Part shown: piece after piece, positions 2,134-26,485 of the stretch
How the letters are laid out: every line of letters begins with the position of its first letter
Position numbering within the stretch: position 1 is the stretch's first letter
From: Actinomycetes bacterium
Lineage (GTDB): Bacteria > Actinomycetota > CALGFH01
Reading direction: 5' to 3'
Assembly (NCBI GenBank): GCA_036003705.1
Contig: DASYSE010000102.1
Location: 4,965 to 68,964, forward strand
DNA length: 64,000 bases
The notes under the pieces: model-generated
Database searches by the model: none
The model's input: the letters and a program-made list of their open reading frames with translations, nothing else
Told to the model about the DNA's origin: nothing
Program-made: the position numbers and the translations under genes

Positions 2134-3116
2134 TGGTGTTGACGGCGCCAGCGCACCAGCCGGTCATGCTCGACCGGGTTGCCGAGCTGCTCCGGCCCCG
2201 TTCCGGGGGGGTCTACCTCGACGCCACCCTCGGCCTCGGCGGCCACGCCGAGCGGCTGCTGGAGGCCAGCGCCCCCGACGGCCGGGTCATCGGGCTGGAC
2301 CGGGACCCGGCCGCGCTGGCCCTTGCCCGTCAGCGCCTCGCCTGGGCGGGGGACCGGCTGACGGCCGTCGCCGCCTCCTTCGCCGACCTGGCCGAGGTGG
2401 CCGACCGCCTTGGGCTGGCCGCCGCCGACGGGGTCGTCTACGACCTCGGGGTGTCGTCGCTGCAGCTGGACGAGCCGGACCGCGGCTTCAGCTACCGGGC
2501 CGACGCCCCGCTGGACATGCGCATGGACCCCACCACCGGGATCACCGCGGCCGAGGTGCTCGCCACCTACCCGCGGGCCGAGCTCGCCCGCGTCCTGCGC
2601 GAGTACGGCGAGGAGCGGTTCGCGGGCCGCATCGCCCGCTTCGTCGACGAGGCACGCCGCCGTGCCCCCATCACCACCACCGGCCAGCTCGTCGAGCTGG
2701 TCAAGGCGGCTGTGCCCGCAGCCGCCCGGCGGACCGGTCCCCACCCGGCCCGCCGGGCCTTCCAGGCCCTGCGCATCGAGGTCAACCACGAGCTGGACGC
2801 ACTGGAGGCCTCCCTGCCGCAGGCCGTCGAGCTGCTCGCCCCCGGCGGGCGGCTGGTCGTGCTCGCCTACCACTCCCTCGAGGACCGCATCGTCAAGCGT
2901 GCCCTGGCCGACGCCGGCGGCCGCCCGGTCGAGGGGCCCCCACGCCTTCCCGTCGACCTTCCCGCCGCCAGGCCGGCCAGCGTGGCCATCCTGACCCGCC
3001 GGCCCGAGACCCCGACGCCGGCCGAGGTGGCGGCCAACCCGAGGGCCGAGAGCGCCAAGCTGCGCGCGGCCGAGAAGCTGCAGCCAAGCACCGAAGCCCG
3101 AGGGGGGCAGCCATGA
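2133..3116 (+). CDS. rsmH: 16S rRNA (cytosine1402-N4)-methyltransferase RsmH (MraW)
   Basis: MVLTAPAHQPVMLDRV...YLDATLGLGGHAE...GRVIGLDRDP...DGVVYDLGVSSLQLD matches the SAM-methyltransferase RsmH family. The ATG at 2133 overlaps the mraZ stop. Confidence 0.9.
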   Translation: MVLTAPAHQPVMLDRVAELLRPRSGGVYLDATLGLGGHAERLLEASAPDGRVIGLDRDPAALALARQRLAWAGDRLTAVAASFADLAEVADRLGLAAADGVVYDLGVSSLQLDEPDRGFSYRADAPLDMRMDPTTGITAAEVLATYPRAELARVLREYGEERFAGRIARFVDEARRRAPITTTGQLVELVKAAVPAAARRTGPHPARRAFQALRIEVNHELDALEASLPQAVELLAPGGRLVVLAYHSLEDRIVKRALADAGGRPVEGPPRLPVDLPAARPASVAILTRRPETPTPAEVAANPRAESAKLRAAEKLQPSTEARGGQP

Positions 3117-3610
3117 GCACAGCCACCGGTCCCGCGCGCTCGGCTCCACGCCAGGCGCTCCGCCCCCAGCTCCCGAGGCTGCGTGCCGTCGCCCCGATCA
3201 GCCGGGTCCCGCGGCTCCCGTTCCTGCTCCTCACCCTCGGCTTGATCGTCGCCGGCGTGTTCGGCCTGGTCGCGCTCAACGTCAGCGTCAACCAGCAGTC
3301 GTTCCAGATCAGCGAACTGCAGAAGGACAACCGGCTGGCCGAGGCCCGCTGGACCGCCCTGCAGGCCGACGTCGACCGGCTCAAGGCGCCCGCGCGCATC
3401 GCCAAGGCGGGCAAGGCCGCCCGGCTGGTCCCCGCCGGCCGGCCGCGGGTGGTCGCCTGGCCCGGCTCGACGTCGCGTGGCCGAGATGTGGCCTCCCCGG
3501 GGGCGGCGACTTCCCCCGCTGCCCCCGGGGCCGGCCTCGCCAGAGGCGACGACTCCGGCTGGACCGCCGGCGACCCGTTCCCGCTCAAGCGCTACCTGGC
3601 CGAACCCTAG
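3113..3610 (+). CDS. ftsL: FtsL-like cell-division membrane protein, with a single TM helix and an Ala/Pro-rich tail
   Basis: The position between rsmH and ftsI is conserved in dcw clusters. It has a TM segment LPFLLLTLGLIVAGVFGLVALNV followed by a coiled-coil-like QISELQKDNRLAEARWTALQADVDRLKAP. The ATG at 3113 overlaps the rsmH stop. Confidence 0.55.
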   Translation: MSTATGPARSAPRQALRPQLPRLRAVAPISRVPRLPFLLLTLGLIVAGVFGLVALNVSVNQQSFQISELQKDNRLAEARWTALQADVDRLKAPARIAKAGKAARLVPAGRPRVVAWPGSTSRGRDVASPGAATSPAAPGAGLARGDDSGWTAGDPFPLKRYLAEP

Positions 3611-3679
3611 TCCGCCGGTCCGACGGGGGATCCGGGGAACCCCGAAGGGTGCCCCGGTGAACCGAGAGGGGGGAAGCAC

Positions 3680-5449
3680 ATGCCGCAGCGCGGACGGAAG
3701 CGGCCGCCGCCACGCCGTCGGCCGCCGCCGCGGCCGCGGCGGCGGCGCCGGGTCAACGGCCGCCGCCGGCTGCTCGCCCTGCTGATCCTGAGCGTGCTCG
3801 CCTTCACGGCCATCTCCGGCCGGCTGATCGTGCTCCAGGTGCTGGACGCGGGCTCGCTCGACCAGGCGGCGGCCAGGCAGCGGACCACCGTCATCAAGCT
3901 CCCCGCCACCCGCGGACGCATCTTCGACCGCAACCTGGACGACCTGGCCCTCTCCGTCCCGGCAAGGGCCATCTACGCCGAGCCCCGCTTCATCCGTGAC
4001 AAGCGGCGCACCGCCGGCGAGCTGGCCAGGGTCCTTGGGATGTCACGGGCCGACATCGCCAGGCGGCTCGCCTCCGGCAGCTGGGTGTACGTCGCCAGGC
4101 GGGTCCCCAAGGCCAGGGGCGACGTCGTCCAGCGGATGAAGCTGCCGGGCATCGGCGTGATGGTCGACGTCGCCCGCCGCTACCCCTCCGGCAGCGTGGC
4201 CGCCCAGGTGCTGGGCTTCGTCGACGTCGAAGGCCGCGGCCAGGCAGGGATCGAGCAGCAGTACGACGGCCTGCTGCGCGGGCACCCGGGCAGGATCCAG
4301 CTCGAACGGGACCCGAAGGGCCGGGCCATCCCCCAGGGCCACCGCTCCCTCGAGCCTGCCGAGCCCGGCACCGACCTGGTCCTCACCATCGACCAGCACC
4401 TCCAGTACGTCGCCGAGCAGTCCCTGCAACGGGCCGTCCGCCAGCACAAGGCCAAGGCCGGCTCGGTGGTGGTGATGGTCCCGCGCACCGGCGAGGTGCT
4501 GGCCATGGCCAACATGCCGACCTTCGACCCCAACCGGGTCTCCCGCAGCAAGCCCGAGGCCCGCAAGAACCGCGCCGTCGCCGACGTCTTCGAGCCGGGC
4601 TCGACCAACAAGACCATCACCGCCGCGGCGGCGCTCCAGGACGGCGTGGTGACGCCGAGGACGGAGACGATCGTCCCCGACAACGTCCCGCTGTGCCCGG
4701 AGAAGACCTTCCGCGACTCCCACTCCCACGCCCCGGAGCTGATGACCTTCGCCGAGATCGTCGCCAAGTCCTCCAACGTCGGCACCATCATGACGGCCAG
4801 GCACCTCGGGCCCGAGCGGCTGTACAAGGCCGAGCTGGACTTCGGCTACGGGCGCAGGAGCGGCGTCGACCTGCCGGGGGAGTCGCCGGGCATCGTCCGC
4901 CCGGTGCAGAGCTGGTACTGCACCGACCTTGGGACCAACGCCATCGGCCAGGGCGTAGCCGTGACCGTGCTGCAGATGGCAAGCGTCTACGCCACCGTCG
5001 CCAACAACGGGGTGCTGCGGTCGCCGACCCTGCTGCGCGGCACGGTCGACGCCCGCGGCCACCTGGCCAAGGCCGAGCGCAAGCCGGGTCGCCGGGTGCT
5101 GTCGGTCCGCACCGCCCGCACGCTCTCCCGCATCCTGGAGGGCGTGGTCAAGGACGGCGGCACCGGCACGCTGGCCGCGCTGGAGGAGTGGCGGGTGGCC
5201 GGCAAGACCGGCACCGCCCGCAAGCCCGACACCCGGCGCGGCGGCTACCGGCAGGGCGCCTACGTCGGCAGCTTCATCGGCTACGCCCCCGCCGAACGGC
5301 CGGCCGTCGTGGTCGCGGTCGTGATCGACGAGCCGACCAGGGGCTACTACGGCGGGGCGGTGGCGGCGCCGGTGTTCAGGGAGGTCGCCGGCACCGCCCT
5401 GCGCCGCCTCGGCGTGACGCCGACCTTACCGGCCAAGGCGGTGCGCTGA
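3680..5449 (+). CDS. ftsI: Class B penicillin-binding protein, a septal peptidoglycan transpeptidase (FtsI/PBP3-like)
   Basis: N-terminal TM, then a transpeptidase domain with GSTNK (SxxK), SxN and KTGTA motifs. GAGAGGGGGGAAG RBS precedes the ATG at 3680. Confidence 0.9.
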   Translation: MPQRGRKRPPPRRRPPPRPRRRRRVNGRRRLLALLILSVLAFTAISGRLIVLQVLDAGSLDQAAARQRTTVIKLPATRGRIFDRNLDDLALSVPARAIYAEPRFIRDKRRTAGELARVLGMSRADIARRLASGSWVYVARRVPKARGDVVQRMKLPGIGVMVDVARRYPSGSVAAQVLGFVDVEGRGQAGIEQQYDGLLRGHPGRIQLERDPKGRAIPQGHRSLEPAEPGTDLVLTIDQHLQYVAEQSLQRAVRQHKAKAGSVVVMVPRTGEVLAMANMPTFDPNRVSRSKPEARKNRAVADVFEPGSTNKTITAAAALQDGVVTPRTETIVPDNVPLCPEKTFRDSHSHAPELMTFAEIVAKSSNVGTIMTARHLGPERLYKAELDFGYGRRSGVDLPGESPGIVRPVQSWYCTDLGTNAIGQGVAVTVLQMASVYATVANNGVLRSPTLLRGTVDARGHLAKAERKPGRRVLSVRTARTLSRILEGVVKDGGTGTLAALEEWRVAGKTGTARKPDTRRGGYRQGAYVGSFIGYAPAERPAVVVAVVIDEPTRGYYGGAVAAPVFREVAGTALRRLGVTPTLPAKAVR

Positions 5450-5485
5450 TGCTAGGCTTTCGCGGGCTGCCCCCCCTGCCAGGGA

Positions 5486-7063
5486 ATGGCGGTCGCTAGC
5501 GGTCGCCGGCGTTCCCGCCGCCGGCAGTCCGAGCCGACGATGCGGGCCTCGAAGTTCATGACCTTGACGTCCCGGCGCGTCCCGCTCGCCAGCCTCGCCC
5601 CGGCCGTCCAGGGCGAGGTCCGCGGCTACGCCGGGACGGTGGTCACCGAGGTCGTCCTCGACACCCGCAAGGTCGTCGCCGGCGCGCTGTTCTGCTGCGT
5701 GCCAGGGGCCAGGGTCGACGGTCACGACCTGGCCGGGAAGGCCCTGGATGCCGGCGCGGCCGCCCTGTGCGTGCAGCGGCCGCTCGACCTGGACGCCCCG
5801 CAGCTGCTCGTCGGCGAGGTCCGGGAGGTGCTCGCCCCGCTGGCCGACGCCTTCTTCGACCATCCCTCGCGCCGCCTCGACCTGGTCGGGGTGACCGGCA
5901 CCAACGGCAAGACCACCACCACCTTCATGCTGGAGGCGATCTTCCGGGAGGCCGGGCGCATCCCGGGCGTGCTCGGCACCGTCGAGGTCCGGGTCGGGGA
6001 CCAGCGCCGTCCGGCCGTCCACACCACCCCGGAGGCGCCCGATCTCCAGCGCCTGCTGGCCGAGATGGCCGACTCGGGCGTGGAGGCCGCCGCCATGGAG
6101 GTGTCCAGCCACGGGCTGGCCCTGCACCGGGTCGACGGCACCCGCTTCACCGCGGCCATCTTCACCAACCTCACCCAGGACCACCTCGACTTCCACGCCG
6201 ACCTGGACGACTACTTCCTGGCCAAGCGGCGCCTGTTCACCGCCGCGTTCACCCCGCTGGGGATCGTCAACCTCGACAGCCCCCATGGGCGCCTGCTCGC
6301 CGCACAGCGCGAGGTGGCCACGGTGACCACCGGCACCGCCGCCGACGCCGACTGGCGGGCCACCGACGTCGCCGCCTCGCTGGACGGCGCCAGCTTCCGG
6401 CTCCGGTCCCCGGCCGGGTCGCGGACGGTCCGGCTGCGGCTGGCCGGCCACTTCAACGTCGCCAACGCGCTCGGCGCCCTGGCCGCGGCCGACGCCGTCG
6501 GGATCGAGCTCGACACCGCCGTCGCCGGACTGGAGGCGCTGGCCGGCGTGCCCGGCCGCTTCGAGCGGGTGGACGCCGGCCAGCCGTTCACCGTGCTGGT
6601 CGACTACGCCCACACCCCGGACTCGCTGGACAACCTGCTCCGGGCGGCCAGGGCGGTCACCAGCGGGCGGCTGATCGTGGTCTTCGGCTGCGGCGGCGAC
6701 CGCGACCGGGCCAAGCGCCCGCTGATGGGAGAGATCGCCGGGCGGCTGGCCGATGTGGCCATCGTCACCTCCGACAACCCCCGCTCCGAGCCTCCCGAGG
6801 CGATCGTCGACCAGATCGCCGAGGGCGTGGCGCGCGGCGCCGGCGCTGGCGGGTTCCAGATCGAGGTCGACCGCCGGGCCGCCATCCGGGCCGCCCTGGC
6901 CATGGCCGGGCCGGGTGACGCCGTGCTGCTTGCCGGCAAGGGCCACGAGCAGGGCCAGGAGTTCGCCGGCGGCCGCAAGGTCCCCTTCGACGATCGGGTG
7001 GTCGCCGCCCAGGAGCTGCGGGCGCTGCAGGGAGCTCCCCGCCGGACCGGGGGGGAACGATGA
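5486..7063 (+). CDS. murE: UDP-N-acetylmuramoyl-L-alanyl-D-glutamate--2,6-diaminopimelate ligase MurE
   Basis: VTGTNGKTTTTFMLEAIF P-loop, a Mur ligase central and C-terminal domain, and DTRKVVAGALF. An alternative in-frame ATG at 5540 is possible. Confidence 0.9.
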   Translation: MAVASGRRRSRRRQSEPTMRASKFMTLTSRRVPLASLAPAVQGEVRGYAGTVVTEVVLDTRKVVAGALFCCVPGARVDGHDLAGKALDAGAAALCVQRPLDLDAPQLLVGEVREVLAPLADAFFDHPSRRLDLVGVTGTNGKTTTTFMLEAIFREAGRIPGVLGTVEVRVGDQRRPAVHTTPEAPDLQRLLAEMADSGVEAAAMEVSSHGLALHRVDGTRFTAAIFTNLTQDHLDFHADLDDYFLAKRRLFTAAFTPLGIVNLDSPHGRLLAAQREVATVTTGTAADADWRATDVAASLDGASFRLRSPAGSRTVRLRLAGHFNVANALGALAAADAVGIELDTAVAGLEALAGVPGRFERVDAGQPFTVLVDYAHTPDSLDNLLRAARAVTSGRLIVVFGCGGDRDRAKRPLMGEIAGRLADVAIVTSDNPRSEPPEAIVDQIAEGVARGAGAGGFQIEVDRRAAIRAALAMAGPGDAVLLAGKGHEQGQEFAGGRKVPFDDRVVAAQELRALQGAPRRTGGER

Positions 7064-21195: not shown

Positions 21196-22128
21196 ATGCC
21201 GCCACTGACGCCGCTGGACATCCAACACAAAGAATTCACCAAGGCCATGCGCGGGTACGCCATGCACGAGGTGGACACCTTCCTCGATCAGGTCACCGAG
21301 GAGTTCACTCGGATGCAGGACGAGATCGCCCGCCTCCGGGAGCAGGCTTCCAGCACGACGCCGTCGCAGCCCGCCCCGGTGCAGGTGCAGCAGGCCCCGC
21401 CGCCTCCGCCCCCGCAGCCGGTGGCCGCCGAGCCGCGCAGTGCCGGTGGCGAGGAGGCGATCGCCCGGGCCCTGGTCATGGCCCAGCGGATGGCCGACCA
21501 GACGGTCGAGGAGGCCAAGGTCAAGGCCAAGTCGATGGTCGCCGAGGCCGAGGCGCGCGCCAAGAACATGACCGAGCAGGCGCAGATGCGCGCCCGCGAG
21601 GTCACCGAGGCCGCCCAGATGCGCGCCCGCGAGGTCACCGAGGCCGCTCAGATGCGCGCCCGCGAGGTCACCGAGGCCGCCCAGGCCAGGGCCCGCGAGC
21701 TCACCGAGGGCCTGGAGACCCGCTACAAGGAGCGGATCCAGTCGGCCGAGGCCCGCGCCCGCGTTGCCGAGGAGCAGGCCCGCATGCAGATCGCCCAGGC
21801 GACCGAGCAGGTGGCCAGGCGCCGTCAGGAGCTCGAGAGCTCCATCGAGGCACTGCGTGCGTTCGAGCGCGACTACCGCGCCCGGCTCCGCGGCTTCGTC
21901 GAGGGCCAGCTCAAGGCGCTCGAGGACGCGGCCCCGTCCGGGCCGGTCGCCCCACCGCAGCCGCCAGGCCTCGGCGGGAACTCGCGGCCCCTGCCCGGCG
22001 CCGACGACCTGCCGGCCCTGTCGACCGGGGCGCGCCAGAGCTCCTACTCGGCCCTGCGCGACTCGACCTCCGACCAGCTCGGCCACAACGGTCGCGACCG
22101 CGTCGACCGGCTGCGTCACGACGACTGA
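21196..22128 (+). CDS. divIVA: DivIVA/Wag31-family coiled-coil cell-pole/septum protein
   Basis: MPPLTPLDIQHKEFTKAMRGYAMHEVDTFLDQV is the lipid-binding DivIVA N-domain. It is followed by long coiled-coil regions. Confidence 0.9.
   Translation: MPPLTPLDIQHKEFTKAMRGYAMHEVDTFLDQVTEEFTRMQDEIARLREQASSTTPSQPAPVQVQQAPPPPPPQPVAAEPRSAGGEEAIARALVMAQRMADQTVEEAKVKAKSMVAEAEARAKNMTEQAQMRAREVTEAAQMRAREVTEAAQMRAREVTEAAQARARELTEGLETRYKERIQSAEARARVAEEQARMQIAQATEQVARRRQELESSIEALRAFERDYRARLRGFVEGQLKALEDAAPSGPVAPPQPPGLGGNSRPLPGADDLPALSTGARQSSYSALRDSTSDQLGHNGRDRVDRLRHDD
21580..21711 (+). repeat. 33-bp in-frame tandem repeat (3 near-perfect copies plus 1 degenerate) inside divIVA, encoding AQMRAREVTEA x3
   Basis: gcgcagatgcgcgcccgcgaggtcaccgaggcc repeated head-to-tail. 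Confidence 0.8.
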
Positions 22129-22161
22129 CGGTCACGGTCGGGCGTTCCACCAGCCATCCGG

Positions 22162-22320
22162 GTGGTCGCCGGCGCCCTGCTCGCCTTGGCCGTGGCCATG
22201 GGCCTGCTGGTTGCCTCGCTGTTCCGCGCCGACGGCCTGAGCTTCGTGTGGGCTTCGCTGGCAGTTGACGCGATCGCGGTCACGCTGCTGGTGGCGGCCC
22301 TTCGCCGGCGGGCCCGCTAG
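22162..22320 (+). CDS. Possible small hydrophobic protein (52 aa, 2 predicted TM segments). Speculative
   Basis: GTG-initiated ORF VVAGALLALAVAMGLLVASLFRADGLSFVWASLAVDAIAVTLLVAALRRRAR lies 33 nt after the divIVA stop. It is not in the ORF track (no ATG) and has no clear RBS. Confidence 0.25.
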   Translation: MVAGALLALAVAMGLLVASLFRADGLSFVWASLAVDAIAVTLLVAALRRRAR

Positions 22321-22478
22321 GCGCGCGGCCGTAGGCGCGCGCGGCCGGCGAAGTCGCCCTTGGCTGGCGAAGTCGTCCGGTCGGCCGGCCGGACCGAGGT
22401 CAAGGTGCCGTCGGTCGCGGCCACCTTGATCCCGAGCTTGCGGTGCAGCGGCGTCGCCGAGTCGTCGCGGTCCGCCAT
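22317..22478 (-). CDS. Small ORF (53 aa) translationally coupled to the upstream HExxH ORF (ATGA overlap). Its N-terminus (TPLHRKLGIK) resembles DUF3052-type proteins, so it may be a gene remnant
   Basis: ATG at 22478-22476 overlaps the TGA of the 22478..22933 ORF. The similarity call is from memory only. Confidence 0.3.
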   Translation of the reverse strand: MADRDDSATPLHRKLGIKVAATDGTLTSVRPADRTTSPAKGDFAGRARLRPRA

Positions 22479-22933
22479 CAGCCTCCCTCGGGCCGGTGGT
22501 CGCGCTCGTTGAGGGCGTCCTGGACGGCCGCGGCCGCCAGCGAGGCGGCCCGCTCGAACGGGTTGCGCCGATACCCTCGTATGCTGCCCAGCAGGTAGGC
22601 GGGGTAGTAGAACGGGCCCCAGCGCTCGTGCTGGGCGACGTGCTCCAGCTCGTGGGCGAGCAGGCGGTCGTCCAGGTGCCGGTTGGCCACGATCACGTGG
22701 CCGAGCGTGATGGCCTTGAACCCGCGCCAGCCGAGCAACCGGGCCAGCCCGCCGCGGCCGCCCTCGAACAGCAGCACCCCCCGCCAGCGCACCGGCCGCG
22801 TCCGGGTGGTGAGCGCCCCGACCAGCCCGACCAGGCTGTTCGGCCCGGCCCACAGATACCCCCACACCGACCGGGCCGCCGGCAGCAGGTCCCCCAGGTC
22901 GTCGACGCGCACCGGCCGTGCCCGCCCGGTCAC
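22478..22933 (-). CDS. 151-aa protein with an HExxH motif (putative zincin-like metallopeptidase/hydrolase). The start overlaps the ileS stop
   Basis: AHELEHVAQHERWGPFYYPAYLL. Its GTG start codon (22933-22931) overlaps the ileS stop codon (22932-22930), so it is probably co-transcribed and co-translated with ileS. Confidence 0.5.
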   Translation of the reverse strand: MTGRARPVRVDDLGDLLPAARSVWGYLWAGPNSLVGLVGALTTRTRPVRWRGVLLFEGGRGGLARLLGWRGFKAITLGHVIVANRHLDDRLLAHELEHVAQHERWGPFYYPAYLLGSIRGYRRNPFERAASLAAAAVQDALNERDHRPEGG

Positions 22934-25900
22934 CGCTCCTCGGTCACCGGGCGCAGCCAGAGGCGGACCGGCTGGCCGTCCAGGTCGACCCGGGCGTCAT
23001 GACCGTCGCCCTGGGGGGCGCGGTGCAGGCTGGTCGCGAGGGTCTCGCCGAGCAGGTAGTCGCGGTGGGCGTCGACCGCGGCCGCGACCTCGCCGTCGGC
23101 CCTGACGGCCAGCTCGATCCGGTCGTCCACCGCCAGCCCGGCCGCCTTGCGGAGGTCCTGCACGGCCCGGACCAGGTCCCTGGCCAGTCCCTCGAGGCGC
23201 AGCTCGGGCGAGACCTCCAGGTCGAGGGCGACCGCGGTGGCGCCGTCGCGGACCACCCGCCAGCCGGTCACCGGCTCCTCGACCACCGCGACCTCCTCCG
23301 GGGCGAGCTCGACCACGCCCAGTCCCTCCACGACCAGCTCGACCCGCTGGCCGGCCCGCAGCCTCGGGGCCAGCCGGCCCGCCAGCTCGGCCGGCGCCTG
23401 GCGCATCGCGGCGGCCACCGCCTGGGCGTCGCGCCCGAAGCGGGGGCCAAGGGCCCGGAAGTTCGGCGCCAGCCGGTAGGCGACCAGCCCGACCTCGCCC
23501 TGCGCGAACCCGACCTGCTTGACGTTGAGCTCGGCCGCGACCAGGTCGAGCAGCCCGGCCACCCCCTCCCTGACCCGGTCGGGCACGCTGATCAGCGCCC
23601 TGGCCAGGGGCTGGCGTACCTTGAGCCTGGCCTCGGTGCGGGCCTGGCGGCCAAGGCCGACCAGCCGCCTGACCTCGGTCATGGCGGCGCTCAGCGCCGG
23701 GTCGGCCGCGGCCCGGTCGGGCTCCGGCCAGTCGACCAGGTGGACCGAGTCCGCCGCCTCCGGGTCGACCGAGACCACCAGCCCCTGCCACAGCGCCTCG
23801 GCGGTGAACGGCGCATACGGCGCCAGCAGCAACGAGACCGTCCGCAGGCAGGTCCACAGGGTTCGGAAGGCGGCGTCGGCGTCGCTGCCGGTACCCCGCC
23901 AGAACCGCCGCCGCGACAGCCGCACGTACCAGTTGGAGAGGTCGTCGACGAACCCGGCCAGCCGCCGGGCGGCGCTGGTGGCGTCGTAGTCGTCCAGGTT
24001 CCGGGTGACCTGCTCCACCGTGTCGGCCAGCTCGGCCAGCACCCACCGATCGAGCGCCGAGGTCGGGGCTCCGGCGGCGGAGCGGGTGGGGTCGAACTCT
24101 TCCAGACGGGCGTACAGCGCGAAGAAGCTGTAGGTGTTCCACAAGGTGAGGAAGAACGACCTGGTGACGTCCTCGATGGCCTCGGGGAACAGGCGCCGCG
24201 ACACCCACGGCGACCCGGTGGCCAGCATGAACCAGCGCATCGGGTCGGCACCGTAGCGGTCCAGCAGCTGGATTGGGTCGAGCACGTTGCCGAGGCTCTT
24301 CGACATCTTGCGGCCGTCGCGGTCGACGATGTGCCCCAGGCAGACCACGTTCCGGTAGGACGTCTGGTCGAACAGCAGCGTGCTCACCGCCAGCAGGGAG
24401 TAGAACCACCCGCGGGTCTGGTCGATGGCCTCGGAGATGAAGTCGGCCGGGAACGCGCGCTCGAAGGCGGCCCGGCTGTCCGGGGCGTGCGGGTAGCCCC
24501 ACTGGGCGAACGGCATCGACCCGGAGTCGAACCAGGCGTCGAGCACGTCGGGGACCCGGCGGGCCTCCTGCCCGCAGTCCGGGCAGGCCAAGCGCACCTC
24601 GTCCACGAACGGCCGGTGCGGGTCGAGGCCGGACAGGTCGCGGCCGGCCTTCGCCGACAGGTCGGCCAGGCTCTCGACCACGGTCACGTGCCCGTCCGCG
24701 CAGCGCCACAACGGCAGCGGGGTGCCCCAGTAGCGGGCCCTGGACAGCGCCCAGTCGACGTTGTTGGCCAGCCAGTCGCCGAAGCGGCCGTCGCGGATGT
24801 GCTCGGGGCGCCAGCCGATGCGGGCGTTCTCGTCCAGCAGCCGGTCCTTGACCGCCGTCGTCCTGGCGTACCAGGAGGTCAGCGCGTAGTAGATCAGCGG
24901 GGTCGAGCAGCGCCAGCAGAACGGGTAGGCGTGCCGGTGGGTCTCGGCCCGCCACAGCAGCCCCCGCCGGCGCAGGTCCTCGACCAGGTCCGGGTCGGCG
25001 TCCTTGACGAACCTGCCGGCCAGCCAGCCGCTCTCCGGGCCGAAGCGGCCGTCGAGGCCGACCGGGTGGAGCACCGGGGTGTTGTAGCGCTGGCCCACGG
25101 CCAGGTCCTCGGCGCCGTAGGCCGGCGAGGTCTGGACCAGGCCCGACCCGTCGCTGGTGGTGACGTAGTCGTCGGCCACCACCGTCCAGCCCCGGGCCGC
25201 CTCCTCGTCGGTCACCGGGACCAGGTCGAAGGCGCGCCGGTAGCGGGTGCCGAGCAGCTCCTGGAGGGGCACCGGCCGCAGCACCCGGGCGTCCTCGCCG
25301 ACCGCCTTGGCGACCAGGTCCCTGGCCACCACCAGCTTGCGGGCCCTCCCGTCCTGGCCGGTCGCCTCCACCAGGACGTACTGGATATGGGGGCCGACCA
25401 CCACCGACACGTTGGGGACCAGCGTCCACGGCTGGGTCGTCCAGACCAGCAGGGCCGCGCCCTCCTCGGCCAGGGTGCCGGTGGTCGCCGGCAGGGCGAC
25501 GTAGGCGGTGAGGTCCTCGACCTCCTCGTAGCCCATCGCCACCTCGGCGTCCGACAGCGTCGTCTCGCAGCGAGGGCAGTAGGGAGAGACCTTGTAGTCC
25601 TCGACCAGCAGGCCGCGGCGGTACAGCTCGGCCAGGGCCCACCAGACGCTCTCGACGTAGGAGGTGTCCATCGTCCGGTAGGCCTGGCTGGTGTCGATCC
25701 AGAAGCCGATCCGCTCGGTGAGGCGCTCGAAGGCGTCGACGTAGCGCTCGACCGACTCGCGGCAGCGGGCGTTGAACGCCTCCACCCCGAACGCCTCGAT
25801 CGCGCGCTTGTCCTGGAGGCCGAGTTCCTTCTCGACCTCCAGCTCGACCGGCAGGCCGTGGCAGTCCCAGCCGCCCTTGCGGTCGACCCGGTAGCCGCGC

Positions 25901-26127
25901 ATCGTCTTGAAGCGCGGGAACAGGTCCTTGAAGACCCGCGCCTCCACGTGGTGCACGCCGGGCCGGCCGTTGGCGGTCGGCGGCCCCTCGTAGAAGACGA
26001 ACGGCTCGGCCCCGACCCGCTGATCGACGGAGCGCTGGAACACCTTCCGGTCGCGCCACAGCTCCAGCATCCTGGCGTCGAGCGCTGGGAGGTCGAGGTT
26101 GGGGTCGACCTCGGGGAACCGGCCCAT
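22930..26127 (-). CDS. ileS: Isoleucine--tRNA ligase (type 2, eukaryote/actinobacterial-like, no C-terminal zinc finger)
   Basis: HIGH-class motif PGVHHV, KMSKS motif KMSKSLGN, and CP1 editing domain. ATG at 26127 with GAAGGAG RBS. The track's 26241 start extends into the leader. Confidence 0.95.
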   Translation of the reverse strand: MGRFPEVDPNLDLPALDARMLELWRDRKVFQRSVDQRVGAEPFVFYEGPPTANGRPGVHHVEARVFKDLFPRFKTMRGYRVDRKGGWDCHGLPVELEVEKELGLQDKRAIEAFGVEAFNARCRESVERYVDAFERLTERIGFWIDTSQAYRTMDTSYVESVWWALAELYRRGLLVEDYKVSPYCPRCETTLSDAEVAMGYEEVEDLTAYVALPATTGTLAEEGAALLVWTTQPWTLVPNVSVVVGPHIQYVLVEATGQDGRARKLVVARDLVAKAVGEDARVLRPVPLQELLGTRYRRAFDLVPVTDEEAARGWTVVADDYVTTSDGSGLVQTSPAYGAEDLAVGQRYNTPVLHPVGLDGRFGPESGWLAGRFVKDADPDLVEDLRRRGLLWRAETHRHAYPFCWRCSTPLIYYALTSWYARTTAVKDRLLDENARIGWRPEHIRDGRFGDWLANNVDWALSRARYWGTPLPLWRCADGHVTVVESLADLSAKAGRDLSGLDPHRPFVDEVRLACPDCGQEARRVPDVLDAWFDSGSMPFAQWGYPHAPDSRAAFERAFPADFISEAIDQTRGWFYSLLAVSTLLFDQTSYRNVVCLGHIVDRDGRKMSKSLGNVLDPIQLLDRYGADPMRWFMLATGSPWVSRRLFPEAIEDVTRSFFLTLWNTYSFFALYARLEEFDPTRSAAGAPTSALDRWVLAELADTVEQVTRNLDDYDATSAARRLAGFVDDLSNWYVRLSRRRFWRGTGSDADAAFRTLWTCLRTVSLLLAPYAPFTAEALWQGLVVSVDPEAADSVHLVDWPEPDRAAADPALSAAMTEVRRLVGLGRQARTEARLKVRQPLARALISVPDRVREGVAGLLDLVAAELNVKQVGFAQGEVGLVAYRLAPNFRALGPRFGRDAQAVAAAMRQAPAELAGRLAPRLRAGQRVELVVEGLGVVELAPEEVAVVEEPVTGWRVVRDGATAVALDLEVSPELRLEGLARDLVRAVQDLRKAAGLAVDDRIELAVRADGEVAAAVDAHRDYLLGETLATSLHRAPQGDGHDARVDLDGQPVRLWLRPVTEER

Positions 26128-26485
26128 CTGCTGATCGTCTCCTTCGCGCGACGTTGCCCTGGCGAAGGGACGAGGCCATGAGCCCCGCGGTACCACCCCT
26201 CGTGCCGGCAGCCTCGCGACCACCGACCGCTCGCCGGCCACCGGGTTGCAGTGGTCCGTCAGCTGTCACGGGCTGACCCGGCTGCGTCTACTGGGCGGTG
26301 GCCCGCCGTTCGGGCAGCGGCTCGGGGAGGATGTTCGAGAGGCGCCGTGCCACCGGGCTTCCACCATCCCCGGCTCGCTGGCGGCCGTGCCGCCCCCTAC
26401 TCGTTCCCGTCATCGCCTGTACCCCGAGTCTACCTCGCCCCCGCAATCGGTTTGGCTATGATGCCAATGCAGCTGCCGCCTTCCG
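26128..26485 (-). promoter_or_regulatory. T-box riboswitch leader of ileS (Ile specifier), with an ultrashort Stem I and an SD-sequestering expression platform
   Basis: The reverse-strand RNA contains the T-box motif GGGUGGUACCGCGG (complement of 26185-26198). Upstream is a hairpin UUGGC-AUCAUA-GCCAA whose loop carries AUC (Ile codon) followed by a purine (complement of ~26449-26469). The segment CUCGUCCCUUCGCC can pair with CGAAGGAGACG, which covers the ileS SD. Confidence 0.75.

Follow-up and report, generated by a model that had tools for sequence, protein, structure and literature searches.

What are the two small open reading frames (ORFs) that follow the T-box-controlled ileS gene of an uncultured actinobacterium, and does the overlap between their start codons and the preceding stop codons tie them to the synthesis of IleRS? 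The window, meaning the whole stretch of 64,000 nucleotides that was analysed, comes from a metagenome-assembled genome (MAG) contig labelled "Actinomycetes bacterium", the source being an uncultured soil actinobacterium. The first of the two ORFs encodes a protein with an HExxH motif and the second encodes only 53 residues. The explanation that fits best, and which we consider likely, is that a gene of minimal zinc-metallopeptidase type is coupled to ileS behind its T-box, and that the remnant of a DUF3052-family gene stands behind it. The evidence for the HExxH gene and for its coupling to ileS is solid; the most intriguing evidence, which concerns catalytically dead paralogues of IleRS, lies outside the window.

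The HExxH gene and its linkage to ileS

The T-box, ileS, the HExxH ORF and the 53-aa ORF all lie on the minus strand. From the leader to the end of the HExxH gene, the features are as follows:

26163..26422, minus strand: T-box leader of ileS (Rfam RF00230, 49.1 bits, E = 1e-8, full model 1–219)
26125..26145, minus strand: ribosome-binding site GAAGGAG and ATG of ileS, with a predicted sequestrator helix between this site and the T-box 3′ strand
22930..26127, minus strand: ileS, 1065 aa, IleRS2 type, with its ATG at 26127
22930..22941, minus strand: ileS/HExxH junction GAGGAGCGGTGA, a Shine–Dalgarno-like GAGGAG and then a GTG that overlaps the ileS TGA
22478..22933, minus strand: HExxH gene, 151 aa, zincin-like and distantly related to DUF4157/eCIS_core (PGAP VGS14_10245)

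A reading made from the DNA sequence only had placed the stop codon of ileS over the GTG of a 151-aa HExxH ORF, and this arrangement was confirmed as a GTGA at 22930–22933, in which the ileS TGA occupies 22932..22930 and the GTG 22933..22931. The ORF contains AHELEHVAQHERWGPFYYPAYLL, and its GC3 of 0.95 is similar to that of ileS. A scan of 21900–23300 detected no promoter-like or terminator-like site on either strand, and so none between ileS and the small ORFs. PGAP labels all three small ORFs of the region (VGS14_10245, VGS14_10240 and VGS14_10235) "hypothetical protein". The window DNA is 74% G+C, and long spurious ORFs are common in all six frames. The 151-aa ORF is nonetheless a genuine conserved gene: the conservation in related genomes on which the earlier proposal depended was found, with hundreds of homologues and an overlap with ileS in about 40 loci.

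Relatives were scanned with one genome per species, which returned 54 loci, and neighbours were called by tblastn of the window's proteins against all of them. The scan was based on a nine-sequence alignment and used only two peptide patterns, so divergent members of the family will be missed. An ileS or ileS-like gene stands directly upstream of the HExxH gene in about 40 Actinomycetota loci. Wherever upstream DNA is visible in an Actinomycetota locus, ileS is immediately upstream, with one exception, a Euzebya MAG in which the HExxH gene lies beside rluD and there is no ileS. The linkage reaches the Nitriliruptoria (Egibacter, Nitriliruptoraceae), where the HExxH proteins are 40–50% identical and IleRS about 55% identical to those of the window. 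Overlapping or abutting stop and start codons, a trait of coupled cistrons, are conserved among the relatives. Most junctions are overlapping codons (GTGA, ATGA, TTGA, TAGTG and ATGCCTAG); the overlap measures 1–28 nt in the large majority of the roughly 40 loci, with a few of 22–28 nt, and gaps between ileS and the HExxH gene are rare and no longer than 27 nt.

In the window, the locus is flanked by ftsZ-ylmD-ylmE-sepF-yggT-divIVA on one side and by a dksA-like gene, lspA, rluD and dnaE on the other. The whole neighbourhood is shared by close soil-metagenome relatives: dnaE-rluD-lspA-dksA-like occupy one strand and ileS-HExxH the opposite one, followed by a convergent 52-aa ORF-divIVA-yggT-sepF-ylmE. 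Outside Actinomycetota, the family occurs in Burkholderiales, other Proteobacteria, Planctomycetes, Gemmatimonadota and Chloroflexi; there its genes lie away from ileS and have unrelated upstream neighbours: a gene for an SBP_bac_5 peptide-binding protein in four Burkholderiales, MraY in two Planctomycetes, and RecQ, RibD_C, GST or LprI in others. For two distant representatives, P0132 and P0149, the visible context is limited to contigs of 1.1–1.6 kb. Two cultured actinomycetes were sampled, Acidothermus cellulolyticus and Nocardia brasiliensis, and neither has an HExxH gene behind ileS. A 166-aa gene behind the Acidothermus ileS was considered as an equivalent and rejected, its translation, read by eye, containing neither HExxH nor a visible resemblance to the DUF3052 N-terminus. 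The conserved feature is the linkage of the HExxH gene to ileS.

The leader of ileS is a T-box of translational type. Its RF00230 score of 49.1 bits is below the gathering score of 93, yet it aligns to the model from end to end. It has the core GGGUGGUACCGCG at 26186–26198, a matching specifier, AUC (Ile), at about 26330–26332, and a 3′ alternative helix; every close relative has the core too, 70–85 nt ahead of ileS. In the minimum free energy fold, for which the z-score is not significant, CUCGUCCCUUCGC is paired with GCGAAGGAGACGA. Actinobacterial ileS T-boxes of the translational kind have this relationship between the 3′ strand and the ribosome-binding site (PMC11297988). In the synthetase itself, GVHH (GXHH) replaces HIGH, KMSKS starts at residue 607 and DUF5915 is C-terminal; the Pfam matches of the enzyme are tRNA-synt_1 (382 bits), Anticodon_1 and DUF5915.

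Neither the core pattern nor Rfam reveals a T-box in the Nitriliruptoria loci, and at E ≤ 0.01 Rfam reports none in five Nitriliruptoria or dead-IleRS loci. The coupling is therefore older and broader than the association with the T-box, since the overlap occurs in Nitriliruptoria and other lineages in which no T-box was found. The sequence-only reading had taken the coupling to imply co-expression with IleRS under Ile-tRNA sensing. In part this survives, in that the T-box is a plausible co-regulator of the HExxH gene in this clade. Ile-tRNA sensing does not, however, account for the tie to ileS in general, because the overlap persists where no T-box is found, and also behind catalytically dead IleRS.

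The dead paralogues come from one lineage of uncultured Actinomycetota. At two loci (L024 and L025), the product of the upstream "ileS" is only 32–34% identical to the window's IleRS and scores 30–48 bits with tRNA-synt_1, compared to 382 for the latter. Twelve clusters of such proteins, 799–949 aa long and all from uncultured Actinomycetota, were aligned. They lack the PPTANG-GXHH and KMSKS motifs as well as the WTTxPWT and GTGxVH motifs of CP1 editing; the anticodon-binding domain is kept in all twelve, and DUF5915 is detected in only about half. Their genes occupy the ancestral position, between lspA-rluD and divIVA, and in five of five loci examined the HExxH gene follows with a 4-nt overlap. 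The version of the HExxH protein encoded there has an N-terminal hydrophobic helix, and it is 58% identical to that of the window, while the IleRS-like protein is 32–34% identical. Retention of the zincin gene behind a dead IleRS is in keeping with a connection of the zincin to the IleRS scaffold; retention of the dead ORF for other reasons is also compatible with these loci. They hint at a non-canonical use of an aminoacyl-tRNA synthetase scaffold.

As one alternative, the HExxH protein could be a partner dedicated to IleRS, acting for example in its binding, processing or quality control, and the overlap would serve to make both proteins together, beyond a mere sharing of regulation. The overlap is kept across Actinomycetota classes with or without a T-box, and at five loci it persists, at 4 nt, behind an intact ORF of 800–950 aa that encodes a paralogue devoid of the GXHH, KMSKS and CP1 motifs, with the zincin better conserved (58%) than the IleRS-like protein (32–34%). 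Against this, the members from outside Actinomycetota (Burkholderiales, other Proteobacteria, Planctomycetes, Gemmatimonadota, Chloroflexi) do not adjoin ileS, the Euzebya MAG carries the gene without ileS, and many versions have an N-terminal membrane helix, which one would hardly expect of a protein that pairs with a soluble synthetase. A dedicated partnership is, on this evidence, unlikely. It is rather doubtful, too, that the zincin is a companion of the IleRS polypeptide, not simply carried along in its operon, and that the IleRS body has a second, non-catalytic role, although such a partnership, if real, would explain why a whole lineage keeps a dead IleRS of 800–950 aa at the ancestral position of ileS.

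Family, fold and predicted active site of the HExxH protein

A word-indexed search with the HExxH protein returned 434 homologues; the best 120 of these are at least 74% identical to it and are of metagenome or MAG origin throughout. An exhaustive search of representatives gave 745 clusters at E ≤ 1e-3, of which 117 reach E ≤ 1e-10. The matched proteins are about 120–250 aa long, and the aligned part corresponds to residues 20–135 or thereabouts. Two short segments of the protein are of particular relevance to its predicted activity:

22640..22654, minus strand: HELEH, comprising H94, E95 and H98, the predicted zinc-binding and catalytic motif, within helix 89–117
22553..22564, minus strand: NPFE, containing E127, at the start of predicted helix 125–146, a candidate third zinc ligand of gluzincin type

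In an alignment of 55 sequences, W28, P31, G36, A74, G78, H94, E95, H98, Q101, E103, G106, Y113, Y121, E127 and A130 are near-invariant, with H94, E95 and H98 conserved in at least 90% of sequences and Q101 invariant. The HExxH motif is present in 145 of 150 family representatives, and most or all of the remaining five appear to be fragments, three of them clearly N-terminal partials. Among the 145, a [NH]P[FLMIW][ED] motif follows 26–33 residues past HExxH in 98.

The sole Pfam match is to eCIS_core/DUF4157 (PF13699). It scores 22.7 bits (E = 1.2e-4), where the cut-off is 22, and it spans only positions 39–78 of the 79 in the profile, that is, its C-terminal half. PF13699 is reached at E ≤ 0.01 by 14 of the 55 family members. 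The protein does have the HExxHxxQ after a β-strand that is typical of DUF4157 (TLGHVIV...LLAHELEHVAQ). NCBIfam gave no match for any of the three small proteins, and a PDB sequence search with the HExxH protein found nothing. Membership of the M48/M56 minigluzincins (HtpX, BlaR1, Ste24-like) was considered and failed on sequence (Peptidase_M48/M56).

An AlphaFold2 model made with the family alignment as input is confident (pLDDT 91, pTM 0.85). It consists of N-terminal helices, two β-hairpins, a long helix (89–117) carrying HExxH and a further helix (125–146) that starts from NPFE. Foldseek against the PDB gave no match below E = 1; the closest structure to the model is the VgrG2b metallopeptidase, and the fold is a zincin fold like that of the VgrG2b C-terminal domain. 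VgrG2b is a DUF4157-annotated gluzincin with H935, E936 and H939, and with E983 at the top of a helix (PMC6899460). By analogy with E983, E127 is the likely third zinc ligand, E103 being an alternative candidate. The modelled fold agrees with the earlier view of the motif as zincin-like. The family of this protein is uncharacterised and lies on the margin of the DUF4157/eCIS_core (VgrG2b-like) superfamily; the protein can be described as a divergent, standalone branch of the DUF4157-like zincins.

Many relatives, namely those with an N-terminal extension, have a hydrophobic or membrane helix at the N-terminus. The window's version is not called transmembrane, because its best 19-residue Kyte–Doolittle window reaches only 1.09, and a membrane-protein reading of it was rejected. 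Nei–Gojobori estimates of dN/dS (0.3–0.7) are uninformative, since dS is lowered by a GC3 near 95% and the tails are variable.

The 53-aa ORF and its DUF3052-family relatives

The sequence-only reading had also suggested, from its N-terminus, that the 53-aa ORF might be a remnant of a DUF3052 protein. The features on which this depends are the following:

22317..22478, minus strand: 53-aa ORF, by alignment an internally deleted pseudogene of a 144-aa DUF3052-family paralogue (VGS14_10240)
22476..22489, minus strand: HExxH/53-aa junction GAGGGAGGCTGATG, a Shine–Dalgarno sequence and then a TGA and an ATG sharing one base
22421..22436, minus strand: deletion junction, CTCGGGAT joined to CAAGGTGG, with 98 codons missing relative to L001 and L002
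22343..22375, minus strand: 19-nt imperfect tandem duplication, CGACTTCGCCAGCCAAGGG and CGACTTCGCCGGCC, absent from L006, which shifts the C-terminal frame

The junction differs from the ATGA overlap first described: it reads TGATG, with the HExxH TGA at 22480..22478, the ATG of the 53-aa ORF at 22478..22476, one base shared and a GGGAGG 5 nt upstream. Three relatives whose HExxH proteins are 94% identical (L001, L002 and L007) have an intact 144-aa gene at the same place, behind the same TGATG. When the window is aligned with the DNA of L001 and L002, 294 nt, or 98 of the 144 codons, are gone, in frame. The deletion falls between KLGI and KVAA, where the intact gene is flanked by an imperfect repeat (CAGGGAGG / CAAGGTGG), and the DNA alignment reveals further scrambling at the 3′ end of the ORF. 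By tblastn of the full-length protein, only residues 1–28 and 116–141 are found in the window.

The same deletion junction occurs on an independent JGI contig (L006), whose HExxH protein is 99% identical. This contig lacks the duplicated 19-nt unit at 22357..22375, so that the last third of the ORF is in another frame; the C-terminal part of the 53-aa ORF is consequently unconstrained, since L006 reads a different frame there. At 90% identity, the 53-aa protein forms a cluster with a single member.

Pfam gave no match for the 53-aa ORF, as expected with 98 codons missing, so the profile searches that had been proposed for both ORFs yielded the marginal PF13699 match for the HExxH protein and nothing for its neighbour. 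The intact relatives are more informative. PF11253 (DUF3052) is the best Pfam match in all seven intact proteins tested (the 144-aa protein and six orthologues), with E values from 3.8e-5 to 0.075, only L018 scoring above the cut-off (24.1 bits against 22.7). The 144-aa protein has 6359 homologues, some of which are named "DUF3052 domain-containing protein" by NCBI. A PDB match of the 144-aa protein to EutN (E 0.5) was set aside as due to chance. Together, the alignment to the 144-aa relatives, the in-frame deletion and the PF11253 matches uphold the earlier guess of a DUF3052 remnant.

The canonical context of the DUF3052 actinobacterial signature protein is beside AhpC/TSA (PMC4255298). The ileS-linked copy is not in this context and follows the HExxH gene, whereas a homologue 67% identical to the 144-aa protein (P0506, at L067) adjoins an AhpC/TSA gene. 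The ileS-linked 144-aa gene is thus an extra paralogue, since the 67%-identical homologue holds the canonical position. Its distribution is patchy: a DUF3052-like gene is present at nine loci (L001, L002, L007, L015, L017–L020 and L022) and absent from the others compared (L003–L005, L008–L014, L016, L021 and L023). On the question of whether the pair always stands behind ileS, the answer is therefore divided: the HExxH gene is kept there, while the DUF3052-like gene is present, absent or decaying. The two ORFs are not a conserved pair, the second being a dispensable paralogue that has become a pseudogene in the window. As judged from the alignments, the 53-aa ORF is a remnant rather than a functional partner, with its loss in progress. 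It is probably still translated, because its Shine–Dalgarno sequence and ATG are intact, and it serves as a caution for annotation: listed as a hypothetical protein, it is in fact the stump of a gene being lost.

These observations bear on the possibility that the two ORFs constitute an effector/immunity module, in which a toxic DUF4157-type metallopeptidase resembling VgrG2b would be held in check by a DUF3052-like inhibitor. The best structural match is indeed the VgrG2b toxin domain, the downstream gene is coupled by TGATG, and a small immunity ORF typically lies behind VgrG2b-family genes (PMC6899460). The locus, however, has no contractile-injection or T6SS genes, and the 144-aa gene is 67% identical to P0506, which is in the canonical housekeeping context of DUF3052 beside AhpC/TSA. 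Moreover, the putative immunity gene has been lost or broken repeatedly while the HExxH gene was kept, which would be lethal with a self-toxic enzyme. Such a module is very improbable. Equally hard to credit is the notion that the 53-aa ORF encodes a micro-protein with a function of its own. Its ATG is intact, its Shine–Dalgarno sequence is strong, it is coupled to the upstream gene, its GC3 is 0.94, and its exact sequence is found on two contigs; but it is a fusion of residues 1–17 and about 116–128 of the 144-aa protein with scrambled sequence, the 19-nt indel in L006 shifts the frame of its last third, many relatives have nothing at this position, and its 90% cluster has only one member. 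Finally, the chance that both are accidental open frames in 74% G+C DNA, where long spurious ORFs abound in six frames, is negligible, as the hundreds of homologues, conserved motifs and confident fold exclude it for the HExxH ORF, and homology to a real gene marks the 53-aa ORF as a remnant.

Proposed mechanism and comparison with known systems

The preferred explanation is a coupled metallopeptidase-like gene followed by a gene remnant. Behind ileS, the HExxH gene has no room for a promoter of its own or for a terminator. The overlapping GTG, or else the GTG of codon 8, is the most likely point at which ribosomes that finish ileS at its TGA would begin again, and reinitiation at the former may be aided by the GAGGAG just upstream. 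If terminating ribosomes restart in this way, synthesis of the HExxH protein would follow the translation of IleRS and its output would track it. In this clade, uncharged tRNA-Ile would free the ribosome-binding site of ileS, and levels of both IleRS and the HExxH protein would rise. The codon overlap would provide the route to the second cistron, because a translational T-box acts on initiation and not on transcription.

The protein is predicted to hold zinc via H94, H98 and E127, and to hydrolyse peptide bonds in the manner of gluzincins with E95 as the base. As a working view, it may be a housekeeping peptidase of the cytoplasm or the membrane face; action near the membrane is suggested by the N-terminal membrane helix that many relatives carry. 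The 53-aa ORF would be what was left by the 294-nt in-frame deletion, and by further indels, in a redundant DUF3052-family paralogue.

We know of no function for any standalone DUF4157-like zincin. In this subfamily the start codon has remained joined, across actinobacterial classes, to the stop codon of ileS, an essential gene for an aminoacyl-tRNA synthetase, and this gives a concrete handle on the function of these proteins. Co-production of the HExxH protein with IleRS is predicted, as is its induction, for this clade, by uncharged tRNA-Ile. The locus would also be a testable case of a translational T-box that regulates two cistrons, the signal reaching the second only by coupling. In a full-text search of the literature, no paper was found that combines DUF4157 with a tRNA synthetase.

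In E. coli and other Proteobacteria, a small peptidase gene, lspA, lies directly behind ileS in one transcription unit. LspA is the aspartyl signal peptidase II (Peptidase_A8), whose fold is unrelated to that of zincins. The arrangement in the window differs from the ileS-lspA operon in that lspA is on the other side of ileS and on the opposite strand.

DUF4157 itself is a core domain of extracellular contractile injection systems, where its function is unexplained (PMC8213781), and the solved example is the C-terminal effector domain of VgrG2b from P. aeruginosa (PDB 6h56). Unlike these, the HExxH protein is standalone, of a kind about 130–220 aa long, being neither the N-terminal domain of a toxin nor an extension of a spike. 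The family has its own conserved N-terminal helix with W-x-x-P as well as the NPFE helix, and its context here is a housekeeping one, made up of ileS and the end of the dcw cluster. The protein is associated with no eCIS or T6SS locus and does not occupy the N-terminal position of a polymorphic toxin; on this genomic context, it is not a component of either system.

The closest analogy in kind is with the Rv2189c-type proteins, standalone DUF4157 proteins whose genes lie downstream of ripC in mycobacteria (PMC12067865). Compared by description, these too are small actinobacterial HExxH proteins of DUF4157 kind with a housekeeping neighbour and no injection system, but they are 227–281 aa long and their partner is ripC, which encodes an NlpC/P60 endopeptidase, where the window has ileS. 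The DUF3052-like gene shares its family with SCO2370 and ML1649 (PF11253), the ileS-linked copy differing as an extra paralogue in a non-canonical place from which it is often lost. The T-box has the same AUC specifier, core and 3′ strand capable of sequestering the ribosome-binding site as the translational ileS T-box of M. tuberculosis and other actinobacteria. As a riboswitch it is ordinary; what is new is the second cistron that a codon overlap joins to the gene it controls.

Isoleucyl-tRNA synthetases preceding the HExxH gene

In the IleRS encoded in the window, GVHH replaces the HIGH motif of class I synthetases (residues 57–60; window 25950–25961). It represents the GXHH variant of IleRS2, for which a link to mupirocin hyper-resistance has been reported (PMC10485003). 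In an uncultured lineage of Actinomycetota the position of ileS is occupied by intact IleRS paralogues of 800–950 aa, which form 12 protein clusters and from which the GXHH and KMSKS signature motifs have gone, together with the motifs of the CP1 editing domain; the anticodon-binding domain is retained. In all loci examined, a GTGA or ATGA overlap joins the paralogue to the downstream gene for the zincin-like HExxH protein. Four related loci with a paralogue at the ileS position are listed here.

IleRS paralogues at the ileS position of related loci
L024, 3134–5839: IleRS paralogue
L025, about 3020–5818: IleRS paralogue
L063, 3603–6212: IleRS paralogue
L064, 4001–6724: IleRS paralogue

At two loci from close relatives of the window, L001 and L007, the junction between the ileS stop and the HExxH start is tandemly duplicated over 12 nt (GAGGAGCAGTGA twice; 5981–6004 in L001, and at the same position in L007). 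The duplication creates two candidate HExxH starts, the second of which does not overlap ileS, being separated from it by a gap of 8 nt.

DivIVA and a small hydrophobic ORF

Two features of the window lie in or beside divIVA.

Features in and beside divIVA
21583–21709, + strand: tandem repeat inside divIVA, 33-nt unit, 3.8 copies, 91% match
22162–22320, + strand: very hydrophobic 52-aa ORF directly after divIVA

The repeat is translated as repeats of QMRAREVTEAA, and DivIVA ranges from 301 to 311 aa across relatives. The 52-aa ORF overlaps the 53-aa remnant of the DUF3052-family paralogue by 4 nt at their 3' ends. It is conserved, with 47 members in its 90% cluster and matches of 69–97% identity in relatives (tblastn), and probably encodes a genuine membrane protein of small size.

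Homologues in other gene neighbourhoods

Only one actinobacterial locus was seen without ileS upstream of the HExxH gene. In this locus, from a Euzebya MAG (L035), the HExxH gene (1721–2350, 209 aa) and an rluD-like gene are divergently oriented, and ileS is missing from the space that separates them; downstream of the HExxH gene comes a gene for a CWB2 cell-wall-binding protein. In four loci from Burkholderiales MAGs (L034, L040, L044 and L048) a 525-aa ORF lies immediately upstream of the HExxH homologue; in L034 its product was identified as an SBP_bac_5 solute/peptide-binding protein, and a PEP-CTERM protein is encoded farther upstream. The other three share with L034 a layout of 525-aa and 240-aa ORFs. 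In two Planctomycetes loci the homologue is preceded by mraY. These neighbourhoods may hint at peptide or cell-envelope substrates.

A homologue of the 144-aa DUF3052-like gene, 67% identical, is found at the related locus L067 (6001–6420), where it is divergent from a gene for an AhpC/TSA peroxiredoxin. This arrangement reproduces the linkage to an AhpC/TSA gene reported for the DUF3052 signature protein (PMC4255298).
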